A DNA stretch of 61,781 nucleotides, counting the filler, from Chloroflexota bacterium (GTDB taxonomy: Bacteria; Chloroflexota; Chloroflexia; QHBQ01): assembly GCA_043754535.1 (NCBI GenBank). It is 6 parts of 6 records of this genome, joined end to end, with 100 filler letters (N's around TTAATTAATTAA, not from the genome) between each part and the next. Parts side by side here need not be neighbours in the genome. Positions count along the whole stretch, not along the records: positions 2,583 to 22,618 come from JAYUUN010000002.1; 5 more parts are not named here. One strand, given 5' to 3'. Position 1 is the stretch's first letter; each line of letters begins with the position of its first letter. The position numbers and the translations under genes are program-made. Positions 4,003 to 55,655 of the stretch are shown piece by piece. The notes beneath the pieces were generated by a model. The model ran no database searches and was not told where the DNA came from. It was given only the letters and a program-made list of their open reading frames with translations.

Positions 4003-4929
4003 ATGACCAGGATATTTGTTGTTGATGACGACCCGGCAATCCGCAGCCTGCTTCAGGTTGCACTGTCGAGTCACGGCTACGAGGTGATCACCGCCAATGA
4101 TGGGGCCGAGGCTCTGCCGCTGATCCTGCGGAGCCAGCCAGACCTGGTGCTGACCGATGTTAGTATGCCAAAGATGGACGGCAACCAGCTTTGTAACGCG
4201 CTGCGCTCGGATGCGCGCACCGCCTTCACCCCAGTGATCTTCCTCAGTGGCAACAACTCTGTGGAAGATAAGGTTGCTAGCTTCGGCATCGGGGCAGACG
4301 ATTATGTGACCAAACCAGTTTCTATGCAAGAGTTGTTTGCTCGCATTGGAGTGCAGCTACGCAAGGTTGCCGAGCGCGGGATTATCAATTCACTGACCCG
4401 CCTGCCTGGTGGTGGACGCGTCGAGGACTTCCTCAAGATGATGCTCAACCGCGAGGGCGTGAGTTTCGCTGTCCTCTACGTCGACCTGGACAACTTCAAG
4501 GCCTACAACGACTACTATGGCTTCGTGCGTGGCAACCAGGTAATCATCCTGCTGGCCGACATACTGCGCGAGATCATGAGCGACGAGGATGGTGAGTACA
4601 ACTTCACCGGCCACATTGGGGGTGATGACTTTGTGTTGGTGACGACCTATGAGCGAGCCGAAGCGATTGGCCGCCAGATCATTAGCGAGTTCGATAGCCG
4701 GGTGCGCGATCTCTACGACCCACCCGACCTGGAGCAGGGTTACATCGTTACCAGGTCGCGGCAGGGCAACCCCAAAGCCTTCAAAATCATCAGCGTCTCC
4801 ATCGGCGTAGTCAACAACAAGTTCCGTCGGGTAACCAGTCTGTTGGATATTGGTGAGATTAGTGCGGAGGTCAAGCGGGCAGCCAAGCGCATCAAGGGCA
4901 GTTCCTTCTACGTAGACAAACGCAGATTA
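4003..4929 (+). CDS. Response regulator receiver + GGDEF(GGDDF)-type domain; ends at TTA 4927-4929 (standard code reads through to 8163)
   Basis: IFVVDDD...LTDVSMPKMDG...DDYVTKP receiver; YVDLDNFKAYNDYYGF...GHIGGDDF; domain ends at SFYVDKRR followed by TTA. Confidence 0.85.
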
Positions 4930-13887: not shown

Positions 13888-13979
13888 AAACGCGCTCCCT
13901 CCTGTAATTGCTAGCTGTGGTAGCAGAAAGGCGCACCCGCGTGCGCCCAATCTACTGCTTACCGACATAATTGATGTGA

Positions 13980-14570
13980 TAAGCTGGGGTTGACTGGGGT
14001 CAGGTAGTCCTCGTTGAGGATGTCATCGTCGTCATCCTCCTCCTCATCGCGCAACAGATAGAACAGGAGCGCACCGACCAGGGCCAGGACGATCAGCAAT
14101 GGGCTGAAACCACCGCCACCCTTCTTCTCGCCCTGCTTGCCATAGTTACGCAGCCACTCCACGTTGTCCTGTTCGGCGCGAATGTGCTTGGCGAGGGTGT
14201 CGGCTACGTCGTCGCTCACTTCAGGTAGCTTGTCAATGTAGCTCTTGATGCCCATCGCTTCTCCCCGCAGGCTGCCTTCCAGCGACGAGTAGTCGGACTT
14301 CTGGCTGCGCAACTTGCTGCTCAAGCCCACGACTGCCTCAAACGGGCTGCGCTTGTCCAGGCTCTCGGTATCGCCGCCCAAGTCTTCGTAGAGGCTGATC
14401 AGTTCGTCGCGGCGACGAGCAGCCTGATTGCGGAAGGTGGCGTACTGCTTACGTAGCTTCTTGTCCCCAATCTCCTCAGCAGAGCTATCGTAGGCTTCAA
14501 TGGCGATGTTGTTGCCCTTGACCAGTTCCTCGATAGCCTTCAGCGTCTTTTTGTCTGGCTTGTTGCTCAT
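13980..14570 (-). CDS. DUF2383/PA2169-like four-helix-bundle protein with C-terminal TM helix and acidic tail; first TTA at 13980-13982 (standard-code end 13959)
   Basis: Ferritin-like pattern (GNNIAIEAY...GEAMGIKSY), TM segment LLIVLALVGALLFYLL; AGGAG RBS. Confidence 0.65.
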
Positions 14571-14683: not shown

Positions 14684-15649
14684 CTACTTGCCTGGTACGC
14701 CATAGGTGTGTAGGCCGCCGAGGAAGTAGTTGCCGAGGAAGGTGAACACCGTAGCGACCAGGCCGAGGACGAGCAGCCAGGCCGAGCGGCTGCCCTTCCA
14801 GCGTGGCAGGCTGTGCGCGTGCAGGTAGACCCCGTAGACCAGGGCGGTGACGAGGGCGGCGGTCTCCTTCGGATCCCAACTCCAGAAGGCACCCCAGGCA
14901 TCCTTCGCCCACAAGCCGCCGAGGACGAGGACGGCGATCATCAGGGGGAAGCCGATCAGCACCGACTGGTAGCCAATATCGTCGAGGACGATGCGGCTAG
15001 GCAGCCACTTGCGCTTCGGCTCCTTGTCGCGCTGCAAGAGGTACATGATTGCCGCGCCACCCGCGACCACGAAGCCACCATAGGCGGCGATAGCCATTGC
15101 CACGTGGATGGTCAGCATCAGGCCGTTCTGCAAAGCCGGGATCAGGTTCTTCACGTCGCGCTGCTCTGGCATCAGCACGGGGATGATGATCGCATAAAGG
15201 CCGATCAGCGCGCTGAGGGGGGCGACGAACGCGCCTAGCGACTGCTGGCGGAACTGGCGCACGAGAATAAAGCCAATCAGGGCGGTGGAGAAGGTGAGGG
15301 CCGAGGCAAACTCGTACTGGTTGGAGTAGGGGGCGTGGCCGGTGACGATCCAGCGGAAGGTGACAGCCAGGGCCAGGAAGATGATCGCAACCACGTGCAG
15401 TACATTGGCATAGGTGCCAGCAGGGTGGCGCGGTTGCATGGTCGCCTCGGCCTTGAGGCTGACTGACGTGTTGCCGCCGCCGCTGGTGGCAAGCTGAGCG
15501 GTAGTGCGGCTTGCCAGCACCCCTTGCTTCAACAGGTAGTAGGCATAGAAGCCACCAGCCAGCAGCAGGGTCATCGTCCCCGCGACCAGCATATAGAGGT
15601 TCAGGCGATCCAGGCCATCCAGTTTTGCTGCAAAGACAATTGTGTTCAC
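14684..15649 (-). CDS. ccsA: Cytochrome c biogenesis protein CcsA/ResC (system II)
   Basis: WAKDAWGAFWSWDPKET WWD motif, GHAPYSNQYE, HVAMAI, GLHTYG. Confidence 0.95.
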   Translation of the reverse strand: MNTIVFAAKLDGLDRLNLYMLVAGTMTLLLAGGFYAYYLLKQGVLASRTTAQLATSGGGNTSVSLKAEATMQPRHPAGTYANVLHVVAIIFLALAVTFRWIVTGHAPYSNQYEFASALTFSTALIGFILVRQFRQQSLGAFVAPLSALIGLYAIIIPVLMPEQRDVKNLIPALQNGLMLTIHVAMAIAAYGGFVVAGGAAIMYLLQRDKEPKRKWLPSRIVLDDIGYQSVLIGFPLMIAVLVLGGLWAKDAWGAFWSWDPKETAALVTALVYGVYLHAHSLPRWKGSRSAWLLVLGLVATVFTFLGNYFLGGLHTYGVPGK

Positions 15650-15680: not shown

Positions 15681-17318
15681 TTAAGCTGTTGCCAACTCGC
15701 GCTCATGGCGCAGATCGTACTCCTCGTCGAGGGCCGTCGAGCGGTGCAGCATGGTGCCACCCGCCGCCTGCAAGTCTTCACCAACGCGTAGCATCTTGCC
15801 CGCCAGTCCGGCTCTACGGCTGGCCTGTCCCTTGAGCAGCACCACGCTGCCACCTTCACGGGGTTCGACCCGCGCCCAGAGGCGGCGCACCGGGAAGTAG
15901 AAGACGAGCATGATGCCGAAGATCATCAGGGTGCTAGCAACCACTACCAGGTTCATACCGGGATCGCGCCCAACCTGGAGGCCGCTGAACAGCCGTTCAC
16001 GCTGGAAGGTGACGGTCAGCCCCTGCTGGCTGCTACTCTGCCGCTGGCCGAGGGTAGCCTCCCACAGCGGCTGGTCGCTGCGGATGGCGTAAGCGCGCAG
16101 GTACATCTGGCCCGGCTTCACCTGCTCGTCACCCTGCCCAGCAGAGGAGACCACATCAACCTGCACCTCACCATTGCCGAGGCTGAACGAACCCATGGGC
16201 CGGGTGGGGCCATACATCTTGCTGCGGTAGGCTAGCGGCACGCTACCTTTGTAGACTGTCACCCCAGTCGCGTCCTTCACCTCGATGTCGGCAGCATTGC
16301 CAAAGAACGCCTGATGGAACTTGACCCCATCAATGTCCAGCGGGTCATTGACGCGGATCGTTTTGCGGGCGATCTCCTGGCCGTTACGGGTCACGGTCAG
16401 GTCACTGCGGTAGTCTGCTGGGCGACCGTCTGGATAGTTCTCCGAGAAAAAGCCATTGTTGTAGACGACCAGGCCCGTCCCCTGGCCCACTTCACGGCTA
16501 CTGCCTTGCGGCACGGCGAAGTCCACTAGCTTGAAGCTGTCACCCATCAGCGTTCCCCAGATCGCGCCAATGAAGATGAGGACGATACCGATGTGGTTGA
16601 GGTAGGTGCCAAGCGGCAGCAGGTGGAAGCGGTCGGCGTAGAAGCTGCGCGAGCCGTCCTCATCAGCCTGACTTTCCTGGTAGCGCACGCGCAGGCCGCC
16701 CGCAAGGGCAGCCGGTAGTTTGGCCGCTACCTCGTTGGGGGTGGCGGCGAACTGATAGCTGGCGGCATACTCACCGTGGGCGTAGAAGCGGGGGCCAACC
16801 TTCATGCGAGTGGCGGTCGCCTGCTTCCAGGTGGCGGGCAGGCGGTTGAGGGTGCAGACTACTATGTTAAGGGTCAGCACCGCCAGCAGCCCCTTGAACC
16901 AGAGCGTGCTAAAGAGGTTGAACAGGCCGAGGTCGAACATGATCCCGGTCAGGTCGCCAAAGCGCGGCTGCATCCCGGTCGTCCACATCTTGCGGCTGGC
17001 AGGGTCACCGAGCAACTCTGGCGGCATCTGGATGATCACGGTGCCGAGCAGAGTGGCGAAGGCGATCAGGGCGATCAGGGACATCGCCAGCTTGACCGAG
17101 CAGAAGAACCGCCAAACCGCCTCGCCAAAGCTGTTGACGCGCACACGGGCGGAGGTTTCGATCACCGGCACGGTCTCACGCTCTGCCTTCTTTGGCATGA
17201 AGGGAGCAGAGGGAGGGACGATCACCCTCACTTCGTCGTTGACCAGGGCAGTCTCGCCCCGCGCAACCCGACGGCGGCGTTCCTCCCGTTCCTTATTGCT
17301 GTTGATTTGGCTAGCCAT
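15681..17318 (-). CDS. resB: Cytochrome c biogenesis protein ResB/CcsB
   Basis: FFCSVKLAM...GTVIIQ, CTLNR, YLNHIG, IRVNDPL, GRDPGMNLV. Confidence 0.92.
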   Translation of the reverse strand: MASQINSNKEREERRRRVARGETALVNDEVRVIVPPSAPFMPKKAERETVPVIETSARVRVNSFGEAVWRFFCSVKLAMSLIALIAFATLLGTVIIQMPPELLGDPASRKMWTTGMQPRFGDLTGIMFDLGLFNLFSTLWFKGLLAVLTLNIVVCTLNRLPATWKQATATRMKVGPRFYAHGEYAASYQFAATPNEVAAKLPAALAGGLRVRYQESQADEDGSRSFYADRFHLLPLGTYLNHIGIVLIFIGAIWGTLMGDSFKLVDFAVPQGSSREVGQGTGLVVYNNGFFSENYPDGRPADYRSDLTVTRNGQEIARKTIRVNDPLDIDGVKFHQAFFGNAADIEVKDATGVTVYKGSVPLAYRSKMYGPTRPMGSFSLGNGEVQVDVVSSAGQGDEQVKPGQMYLRAYAIRSDQPLWEATLGQRQSSSQQGLTVTFQRERLFSGLQVGRDPGMNLVVVASTLMIFGIMLVFYFPVRRLWARVEPREGGSVVLLKGQASRRAGLAGKMLRVGEDLQAAGGTMLHRSTALDEEYDLRHERELATA

Positions 17319-17911
17319 AACTTTGCAAACCCATATTTGATAGTCAAATCTTTGAGCAGGGCTGGATTGAGTGGGCCAAGCTGGATGTGGACGATCTTGC
17401 CCGTGCTATCGAGCAGGAAGCTGCTGGGGGTGGCGGCCAGCTTGTAGGCTTTGGTTACGGCCCCATCGAGGTCGAGCAGGATAGGGAAGCTGTAGAGGGC
17501 AGTCTTGCCATCGGGCTGCACGTAGTTCTTGACCGTCGCCGCATCCTCGCGGATGTCTACACCAATCACGGCAAAGCCAGCGGCCTTGTACTGGGCGTAG
17601 GTGTCCTCAAGGTCGGGCATCTCGGCGCGGCAATCGGCGCACCAGCTAGCCCAGAAGTTGACGAGGGTCAGCTTGTTAGCCTTTGCGGTCTGCATCAAAT
17701 CTACAGTGTTGCCGCGCCAGTCGCTGAGGGTGAAGCCGGGCGGCTGGCTGCCAATGGCGATCTCTACCTGCTGACCGTTCTTGAGGTCGCCCACAGCCTT
17801 ACCATCACCATCTTGCAAGCTGCCGACGGCCCCGCTAGTGTTGTCGCAGGCTGCCAGTACCATCAAGGCCAGGGTGACGACCAACATCAGGTTGATGCGC
17901 TGCTTGATCAA
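17318..17911 (-). CDS. resA: ResA/TlpA-family thiol-disulfide oxidoreductase lipoprotein; ends at TTA 17318-17320 (standard-code end 17228)
   Basis: Lipobox LAAC, LVNFWASWCADCRAEMP, TPSSFLLD; first gene of the resABC-like operon. Confidence 0.88.
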
Positions 17912-22618: not shown

Positions 22619-22718
22619 NNNNNNNNNNNNNNNNNNNNNNNNNNNNNNNNNNNNNNNNNNNNTTAATTAATTAANNNNNNNNNNNNNNNNNNNNNNNNNN
22701 NNNNNNNNNNNNNNNNNN

Positions 22719-42564: not shown

Positions 42565-42664
42565 NNNNNNNNNNNNNNNNNNNNNNNNNNNNNNNNNNNN
42601 NNNNNNNNTTAATTAATTAANNNNNNNNNNNNNNNNNNNNNNNNNNNNNNNNNNNNNNNNNNNN

Positions 42665-49172: not shown

Positions 49173-49272
49173 NNNNNNNNNNNNNNNNNNNNNNNNNNNN
49201 NNNNNNNNNNNNNNNNTTAATTAATTAANNNNNNNNNNNNNNNNNNNNNNNNNNNNNNNNNNNNNNNNNNNN

Positions 49273-55555: not shown

Positions 55556-55655
55556 NNNNNNNNNNNNNNNNNNNNNNNNNNNNNNNNNNNNNNNNNNNNT
55601 TAATTAATTAANNNNNNNNNNNNNNNNNNNNNNNNNNNNNNNNNNNNNNNNNNNN

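Follow-up and report, generated by a model that had tools for sequence, protein, structure and literature searches.

Comparative analysis of a 61,781-nucleotide stretch of DNA from a Chloroflexota bacterium (assembly GCA_043754535.1; the whole stretch is referred to below as the window), and of the genome from which it derives, indicates that resA, the gene of a resA-like thiol-disulfide oxidoreductase, is closed by a TTA codon whose last base is also the first base of the start codon of the following gene, resB. Sequence comparison favours, with a probability of about 0.85, the reading that UUA is no longer a leucine codon in the whole family to which this bacterium belongs (two genera, represented by five genomes) and that it acts as a fourth, minor stop codon, resA being one of the genes that it ends. 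UUA had already been taken for a stop codon in the original prediction, which was made from the sequence of the window, and this reading is now supported by a genome-wide census of the codon, by the loss of coding signal beyond it, by the separation of protein domains on its two sides, by the ends of orthologous genes and by the homology of ResA and ResB. The genomic comparisons show the predicted coding regions to end at TTA, while the odds that UUA is read directly by release factor 2 (RF2) are roughly even.

The genome (G000) comprises 3.87 Mb in 132 contigs, with 61% G+C, 88.9% completeness and 0.72% contamination; six of its contigs form the window, the resA region lying in contig C2 (2583–22618). 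A set of 2819 genes was built from stop-to-stop open reading frames (ORFs) under the standard bacterial code (NCBI table 11), using an iteratively trained codon model and greedy overlap resolution, with no assumption about TTA. The family, designated f1, is composed of genus g1 (G000 and G001) and its sister genus g2 (G002, G003 and G004), with families f2, f3 and f4 as outgroups. Four unpublished genomes (G007, G012, G015 and G034) supply three of the 25 outgroup RF2 sequences, three of the 30 tRNA loci and three of the 26 outgroup release factor 1 (RF1) sequences considered below, and no conclusion hinges on them.

The minus strand at the resA/resB junction reads ...GGG TTT GCA AAG TTA TGG CTA GCC..., which confirms the TTATG originally described: at 17316..17320 (minus strand), TTA (17320–17318) shares its A with the resB ATG (17318–17316), and the site is one of 18 junction-like TTATG sequences in the genome. 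The TTA is codon 198 of the resA frame (17318..17320, minus strand), where it would act as the stop, the coding score being 0.36 before it and −0.22 after it. Read with NCBI table 23, resA spans 17318..17911 on the minus strand, starts at TTG and encodes 197 amino acids followed by TTA, so that the predicted product ends in ...YGFAK. With table 11 the frame runs, as had been stated, 91 nt into resB (the two ORFs being 17228..17911, 227 amino acids, and 15681..17318, 545 amino acids), acquiring a read-through tail of 29 codons and a TGA (17228..17317, minus strand; TGA at 17230–17228) which is non-coding in the resA frame. The description of this tail as foreign to thioredoxins is also borne out, the Pfam thioredoxin-type domain (AhpC-TSA, 2.4e-24; Redoxin, 5.2e-23) covering residues 53–185 of the 227 and leaving the last 30 table-11 residues outside.

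Downstream on the same strand, resB (CcsB; 15681..17318, 545 amino acids, Pfam ResB 1.5e-62) begins at the ATG 17318–17316 and is followed by ccsA/resC (14684..15649, 321 amino acids, Cytochrom_C_asm 5.5e-38) as the third gene of the cluster. A gene for a CxxC thioredoxin-fold protein is thus found together with members of the ResB and CcsA families on one strand, the composition of a System II cytochrome c maturation cluster, and the names resA, resB and resC/ccsA appear reasonable because of the Pfam matches, the WCADC motif (the CxxC of the resA translation) and the lipoprotein-like N-terminus (..LAAC) of the same translation. The terminator of resA and the initiator of resB, its co-oriented neighbour, overlap by one base, as they do between operon neighbours in the classical TAATG, TGATG and ATGA arrangements, and TTATG is junction-like at least as often as TAATG and TGATG; unlike in the classical overlaps, the terminator here would be a reassigned sense codon. 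Since a ribosome finishing resA would already stand on the start codon of resB, this geometry suggests termination–reinitiation coupling of resB to resA within the resA-resB-ccsA cluster.

Homology places both the terminus of ResA and the beginning of ResB at the TTATG, because the g2 homologues end and begin at matching places. ResA from G004 ends in ...QYGFN-TGA and that from G003 in ...AYGFK-TAA, compared with ...KYGFAK-TTA here, and their ordinary stop codons lie one to two residues from the position of this TTA; homologues without the LWLAKSTAIRNG tail, to which the original prediction had tied its reading, are therefore found in genus g2. In this genus a spacer of ~80 nt follows resA, after which ResB starts with MATRL..ADKREERRRRVA (here with MASQINSNKEREERRRRVA); the ResB N-terminal sequence KREERRRRVA is conserved in g2, and ResB of the family relatives aligns to the resB product from residue 1. 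The same-genus genome G001, an independent assembly, has an identical TTATG. Between G000 and G001 the first 17 resB codons differ by five changes, four of which are synonymous in the resB frame, while the same changes rewrite the resA-frame tail from AIRNGR to PTKNVK. The g2 spacers themselves (L037, L038 and L059) contain short 7–8-nt tandem repeats (TTCTACA-like and CAACTTT-like) that vary by genome.

Throughout the genome, TTA is the rarest codon of the 2819 genes (455 occurrences, 0.42 per 1000), and the leucine codons CTA (12,264) and TTG (16,942) are common. Gene cores contain 47 in-frame TTAs in 739,425 codons, compared with 4.77 per 1000 in the other two frames, and internal conserved positions are almost free of UUA, as in a code of the table 23 type. 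The placement of the in-frame TTAs is equally skewed: 40% fall within the first 40 codons of ORFs called at their longest, where they are upstream of the true starts, 44% within the last 40 and 16% between, while the middle share is 61–81% for 16 of 17 control codons and 46% for the remaining one, AGA. At the 125 TTAs near 3′ ends, the codon score falls from 0.38 to −0.11 and the G+C content of third codon positions from 0.74 to 0.59; for seven control codons the fall in score is at most 0.15 (largest for AGA), and ATA, AAA, CTA and TTG hardly change. The coding signal drops after TTA whichever of the three frames is read and whichever of the four bases follows, as it does after TAA, TAG and TGA. 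On this evidence, TTA closes ~8% of the genes of G000, roughly one in twelve, and ~13% of those of the sister genus. The enrichment of AGA at gene ends was set aside as a stop-like signal and may be due to Shine–Dalgarno-like AGGAG motifs. TTG behaves as an ordinary sense codon in G000, and TCA was rejected as a second new stop codon, of the kind described in peDinoflagellate plastids, its positional profile being ordinary. As to the three standard stop codons, TAG closes 1190, TGA 938 and TAA 691 of the 2819 ORF-based genes, C follows TAG in 47% of cases and the leucine codon CTA is unusually frequent; the abundance of TAG and CTA points to a genome unusually rich in CTAG-related words.

In the interior of long ORFs, 50 TTAs lie at least 60 codons from both ORF ends, most being followed by a GGAGG-like (Shine–Dalgarno-like) motif and an ATG. 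In 13 of 20 such ORFs searched against Pfam, unrelated families flank the TTA, and in none of the 20 does the best domain stretch cross it. The pairs are GT1 and B3_4-TyrRS; adh_short and PmbA/TldD; Thiamine_BP and biotin carboxylase; DUF4388 and LTD; APH and RNase PH; thiolase and a hexapeptide transferase; Mrr and LplA/B; TPR and an amine oxidase; peptide deformylase and Exo_endo_phos; GT2 and a DNA methylase; HD and ScpA; AsnC and LysE; and response regulator-GGDEF and glycosyltransferases. Domain models matched over their whole length stop shortly ahead of the TTA: the match to Thiolase_C runs to profile position 122/123 at residue 393 (TTA at 397) and that to Iso_dh to position 347/348 at residue 377 (TTA at 385). 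A 1573-codon ORF combining GT-C and GH35 domains (C1:32852-37573, locus L278) has TTA as codon 784, followed by GGAGG and an ATG, with GH35 extending from residue 801, and is most likely to represent two genes and not a fusion, judging from this arrangement.

The enrichment of TTATG at gene junctions predicted from the window was checked genome-wide against TAATG and TGATG, an NNATG being counted as junction-like when coding signal was present upstream in the frame of NNA and downstream in that of ATG; other codons, not shuffled sequences, served as controls. Junction-like cases amount to 18 of 1820 TTATG (0.99%), 12 of 2252 TAATG and 50 of 9847 TGATG, while 13 sense NNATG controls range from 0.05 to 0.33% (pooled, 108 of 67,708; 0.16%). 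The enrichment is present, with an odds ratio for TTATG of 6.3 relative to the sense controls (Fisher p = 6e-9) and of 1.9 relative to TAA and TGA together (p = 0.02).

The same behaviour extends to the other members of the family. Under an identical, simple ORF procedure, in-frame TTA was found at two of 47,465 codons of ORF cores in the four f1 relatives; the corresponding figure for the seven outgroup genomes (57–71% G+C) is 105 of 64,866. Out-of-frame TTA is as common in the relatives as in the outgroups or commoner. Larger g2 samples gave 20 core TTAs in 96,782 codons (G002) and three in 53,795 (G004); a late TTA is present in 43 of 344 and 27 of 214 ORFs of these genomes, respectively, and is followed by the same loss of coding signal. 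TTA used as a stop, in this predicted sense, is a pattern common to all five f1 genomes and to none of the seven outgroups. Orthologous ends were compared for pairs whose last 150 residues were at least 50% identical and whose alignment came to within six residues of the end, all others being dropped. In 19 of 23 such pairs a TTA end in g2 is matched within six codons by a stop in G000 (TAA in five, TAG in seven, TGA in five and TTA in two), the stop being far in two of the others and absent in two; in the reverse direction, a G000 TTA stands opposite 18 of 198 standard stops of g2. UUA thus occupies positions at which homologous genes terminate or have one of the standard stop codons, again as in a code of the table 23 type.

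In genus g1 the change in codon usage is accompanied by the apparent disappearance of the corresponding tRNA. ARAGORN detected 46 tRNAs and a transfer-messenger RNA (tmRNA) in G000, none of the tRNAs having the anticodon UAA; the leucine anticodons CAA, CAG, GAG and UAG are present. Queries built on tRNA-Leu(UAA) of the f2, f3 and g2 types found no match in G000 or G001, and no tRNA(UAA) is found upstream of cysS or downstream of clp in G000. In the outgroups, tRNA-Leu(UAA) was recovered at 23 of 30 loci (in 22 f2 genomes and the f4 genome), 22 of which adjoin tRNA-Gly(GCC), and the f3 genome G006 contains a divergent tRNA-Leu(UAA). On the other hand, tRNA-Gly(GCC) stands alone in G000, G001, G002 and G004: both of its flanks are assembled over 1.5 kb in the three relatives, and the G000 copy is in mid-contig with no tRNA following it. 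A 93-nt tRNA-Pyl(CUA) reported by ARAGORN (C31:4032-4124) was rejected as probably a false positive, on account of its acceptor-stem mismatches, its weak T arm and the status of TAG as the commonest stop codon.

Domains PCRF and RF-1 occur in G000 only in RF1 and RF2, with two matches to PF00472, and an additional release-factor paralogue, considered as a possible reader of UUA, was therefore discarded. The recognition loop of RF1 is canonical (P-x-T...GRIHTS) in f1 as in the outgroups, its six f1-specific changes lying elsewhere. RF2, on the contrary, reads HRMVRISPYDSQHRRQTSF in all five f1 genomes and HRLVR.SP[FY]D...RRHTSF in 25 outgroups, the family differences corresponding to L201M, F207Y and H214Q in E. 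coli numbering, as assigned by alignment to E. coli RF2 chains. This triad recurs in six additional database clusters, at 68% identity or more, and is absent from the next relatives (at most 62%). Of the f1-specific residues, Met201 alone lies at a column that is invariant elsewhere, leucine occupying it in 105 of 105 other RF2s compared. The histidine of RF2 stacks on the second base of the stop codon and the neighbouring valine contacts the third; TGA is read by RF2 only and TAG by RF1 only. Terminal TTA is followed by G in 56% of cases, T in 23%, C in 13% and A in 8%, a profile nearer to that of TGA (G 40%, T 24%) than to that of TAG (C 47%). Release at UUA would most likely be carried out directly by RF2 with its family-specific combination of methionine, tyrosine and glutamine at positions 201, 207 and 214, which lie in the codon-recognition strand and loop. 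The reassignment itself probably followed a codon-capture path, in which TTA, rare at 61% G+C, would have allowed its tRNA to be weakened and then lost, after which the release factor would have captured the codon. In G001, prfB (L006) keeps CUU UGA C, its site of programmed +1 frameshifting, and the autoregulation of RF2 through UGA seems, from this site, to be intact.

A number of observations weigh against a family-wide change of UUA from leucine to stop, or against RF2 as its reader. A few in-frame TTAs resemble neither gene junctions nor gene ends (among them those of C103 85233-85704 and C124 10-1063), and some alignments to paralogues extend beyond TTA, by up to +37 residues; in such alignments of single cases, hits with less than 35% identity or lying wholly after the TTA were dropped. 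Of 22 genes in the ribosomal-protein cluster, not one is closed by TTA, where ~1.8 would be expected, a difference that is not significant; internal TTA is also absent from the same 22 genes, and avoidance of TTA as an end in this cluster would fit a weaker terminator. The gene set rests on ORFs and codon scores and not on a gene finder, with starts placed at the longest ORF. The incompleteness of G000 (88.9%), whose tRNA set lacks, for example, Ala-UGC, weakens the absence of a UAA anticodon. Moreover, the f3-type query detects a tRNA(UAA) in all three g2 genomes, between clp and cysS (L343:1489-1572 in G002, L344:1379-1461 in G003 and L389:1497-1580 in G004). It is a class-II tRNA with a GGGGGUA acceptor stem, 93–94% identical among the three genomes; one pair of its anticodon stem has changed in a compensatory manner, and a C31.A39 mismatch is conserved. 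Because all three g2 genomes keep it, loss of tRNA-Leu(UAA) is ruled out as a trait of the family and UUA is possibly ambiguous in g2; from the available genomes, this tRNA appears to have been lost in g1 and kept in g2, though TTA is used alike in both, and the g2 molecule could represent a relic, act as a regulated suppressor or supply leucine outside the ribosome. As to RF2, glutamine at the histidine position (RRQTSF) is widespread in standard-code bacteria, including Streptomyces, Rhodococcus, Mycobacterium and Oscillospiraceae, among others: at least 120 RRQTSF stretches were found in species-representative genomes, and the 80 that were read comprise 78 SPF+Gln and two SPY+Gln, the latter from Streptomyces. 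The His-to-Gln change was hence rejected as the cause and is retained only within the combination, glutamine and tyrosine being insufficient because both occur in bacteria using the standard code. The proposed role of RF2 is accordingly only a correlation that would depend on one unique Leu-to-Met change. The conserved serine of the SPF/SPY motif, presumably the Ser204 that is altered in organelles (PMC12574857), is also retained.

Retention of the standard code at this locus would require a ResA of 227 amino acids with a 30-residue tail and a resB beginning at the in-frame GTG (17229..17231, minus strand), which overlaps the table-11 TGA of resA as GTGA, a four-base coupling overlap. The GTGA arrangement is indeed present and the 227-residue ORF is uninterrupted under table 11; yet the 29 resB codons upstream of the GTG are conserved as protein in g2, where resA does not overlap them, the g2 ResA proteins end at the position of TTA, the substitutions between G000 and G001 fit the resB frame, and in G001 the position of the GTG reads CTA and the resA-frame stop has moved. 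The behaviour of TTA in the rest of the genome contradicts the standard code as well, which makes this explanation highly improbable and leads to rejection of the GTG as a start. Still less credible, to the point of being negligible, is an artefact of assembly or binning, of contamination or of the ORF-based gene calls: the window does consist of six joined contigs of a metagenome-assembled genome and starts were set as the longest ORF, but five genomes from two genera, each assembled separately, show the same pattern, which is absent from seven outgroups treated identically, contamination is as low as 0.72%, and the stop-to-stop ORF census is independent of TTA.

The two explanations that accept an altered UUA deserve more weight, although both are considered unlikely. 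UUA might be merely unassigned and be read by no release factor, the ribosome stalling and being released after a +1 shift onto UAG, UAA or a nearby +1 stop, or through a rescue system. Two features of the sequence tell for this possibility and against UUA as a stop codon proper: G (132) or A (19) follows 64% of the 237 terminal TTAs, so that a +1 shift would be possible there, and in resA the +1 frame reads UAU GGC UAG, that is, Tyr-Gly and then UAG two codons on. The capacity of the base 3′ of UUA to create a stop codon was raised for Streptomyces (PMC10732093); tmRNA is present, and no decisive change was found in a release factor. Nevertheless, 86 of the 237 terminal TTAs precede T or C and have no nearby +1 stop (median distance 16–19 codons, as after ordinary stops), a shift onto UAG thus failing as a general mechanism; a purine follows TTA in 64% of cases, hardly more often than it follows TAA (54%) or TGA (59%), and the GC found after TTA is shared by every stop. 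The codons ahead of TTA (AAG, GAG, CGC...) are unable to re-pair in the +1 frame, rescue by tmRNA would mark ~8% of proteins for degradation, and no factor of the ArfB type is found, PF00472 matching only RF1 and RF2. Back-up in-frame stops near TTA show no excess in G000 or G002 and a slight, non-significant one in G004. Slightly less probable again is a dual UUA, mostly a stop but translated as leucine by a weak or regulated tRNA(UAA) and thereby producing conditional extensions or fusions in the manner of bldA, in g2 and, should the tRNA have remained unassembled, also here. The tRNA(UAA) with its C31.A39 mismatch is conserved in three g2 genomes in which TTA behaves as in G000, while three queries find no such tRNA in G000 or G001, the tails after TTA lack coding signal in any frame and their lengths match random expectation. 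A fourth stop codon in place of leucine is hence preferred. The fuller proposal built upon it, namely that UUA is read directly by an RF2 with Met201, Tyr207 and Gln214 without the organellar serine change, that a cellular, non-organellar genome would here show sense-to-stop reassignment for the first time, and that g2 is in mid-reassignment, with a UUA of dual and possibly regulated meaning and a weakened tRNA(UAA), is tentative and, taken as a whole, rather doubtful.

Elsewhere in the window, which is interrupted by N spacers joining its contigs (2483–2582, 22619–22718, 42565–42664, 49173–49272 and 55556–55655) and across which features are not readable, a TTA at 4927..4929 (plus strand) would act as terminator between a response-regulator/GGDEF gene and glycosyltransferase genes within a table-11 ORF of 1386 codons: the score falls from 0.52 to −0.32, Pfam Response_reg (4–115) and GGDEF (130–220) precede the TTA at codon 309, and the glycosyltransferase domains follow it. 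Another candidate terminator, at 13980..13982 (minus strand), belongs to the gene downstream of ccsA (table-11 ORF 13959..14570); its score falls from 1.03 to −0.47, the tail being only six codons and the case weak taken alone. Further candidate 3′ TTA terminators of well-scoring ORFs have 12064, 23724, 27230, 31380, 34621, 36801 and 60245 as their lowest coordinates, several of them with table-11 tails of 9–114 codons. In the genome at large, the TTA at the S14/S8 junction (L295) was rejected as a terminator, given that no S14 is recognized by Pfam in frame upstream of it and that the true S14 ends in TAA; this TTA sits between a Shine–Dalgarno-like motif and the start of S8. In the ribosomal-protein cluster (L391, C9:41540-61539), L15 has 501 amino acids with a long C-terminal extension, S5 has a Gly/Arg-rich tail and the ORF of S17 is extended at its N-terminus. 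In C81:29237-32800 (L279), residues 574–1182 hold B3_4 and an entire tyrosyl-tRNA synthetase; the frame that they share is free of TAA, TAG, TGA and TTA from one to the other, and they may, from this continuity, represent a real fusion.

The closest known parallel is the mitochondrial code of labyrinthuleans (Thraustochytrium; NCBI table 23), in which UUA has likewise passed from leucine to stop and the rest of the code is standard, and table 23 reproduces gene ends in this bacterium. There, according to PMC12574857, RF2 has been proposed as the reader of UUA, and mtRF2a has alanine, glycine or cysteine in place of its invariant Ser204; the family RF2 described here keeps the SPF/SPY serine, presumed to be its equivalent, and differs elsewhere. 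Also different is the setting, an organelle genome of very few genes in one case and a free-living bacterium of 3.9 Mb in the other. The same source reports UUA and UCA as stops in peDinoflagellate plastids, UUA and UUG as stops in the mitochondria of Marsupiomonadales and Pseudoscourfieldia, and describes the plastid case as the first sense-to-stop change outside mitochondria (PMC12574857). These algal cases were inferred from the same kinds of evidence, namely a codon confined to gene ends, the resolution of fused genes, a missing tRNA and an altered release factor; unlike in them, TCA and TTG are ordinary sense codons here, RF1 is canonical, RNA editing is not an issue and the organism is a bacterium.

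Within bacteria a comparison can be made with TTA and bldA in Streptomyces, which shares a high G+C content, a very rare TTA and an RF2 with glutamine at the histidine position. In Streptomyces a single tRNA-Leu(UAA), bldA, is dedicated to TTA, which is a sense codon found inside a few per cent of genes, whereas in the present genome TTA is missing from gene bodies and placed at gene ends. Stalling at UUA and the purine 3′ of it have been discussed for Streptomyces (PMC10732093). Sense-to-stop reassignment is known, according to PMC12574857, only from mitochondria and, since 2025, from one plastid lineage, and a preprint of May 2026 counts seven bacterial reassignments, none of them sense-to-stop (bioRxiv 10.64898/2026.05.03.722492). 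The main text of PMC8629427 contains neither 'UUA' nor 'TTA', and full-text literature searches, with supplements outside their scope, returned no report of UUA or of any sense codon acting as a stop in bacteria. Codetta, the main tool for large-scale screening, cannot detect changes of this kind, as stated in PMC9825746.

The annotation of f1 genomes with table 11 gives rise to false C-terminal tails, overlaps and gene fusions. Reassignment from sense to stop is the rarest kind of change in the genetic code and, if the present reading is true, it would be possible in a genome of thousands of genes, 8–13% of which end in TTA. The family would then offer a natural intermediate, with one genus that has the tRNA and one that is without it, and a release factor that may be tested for a new specificity.

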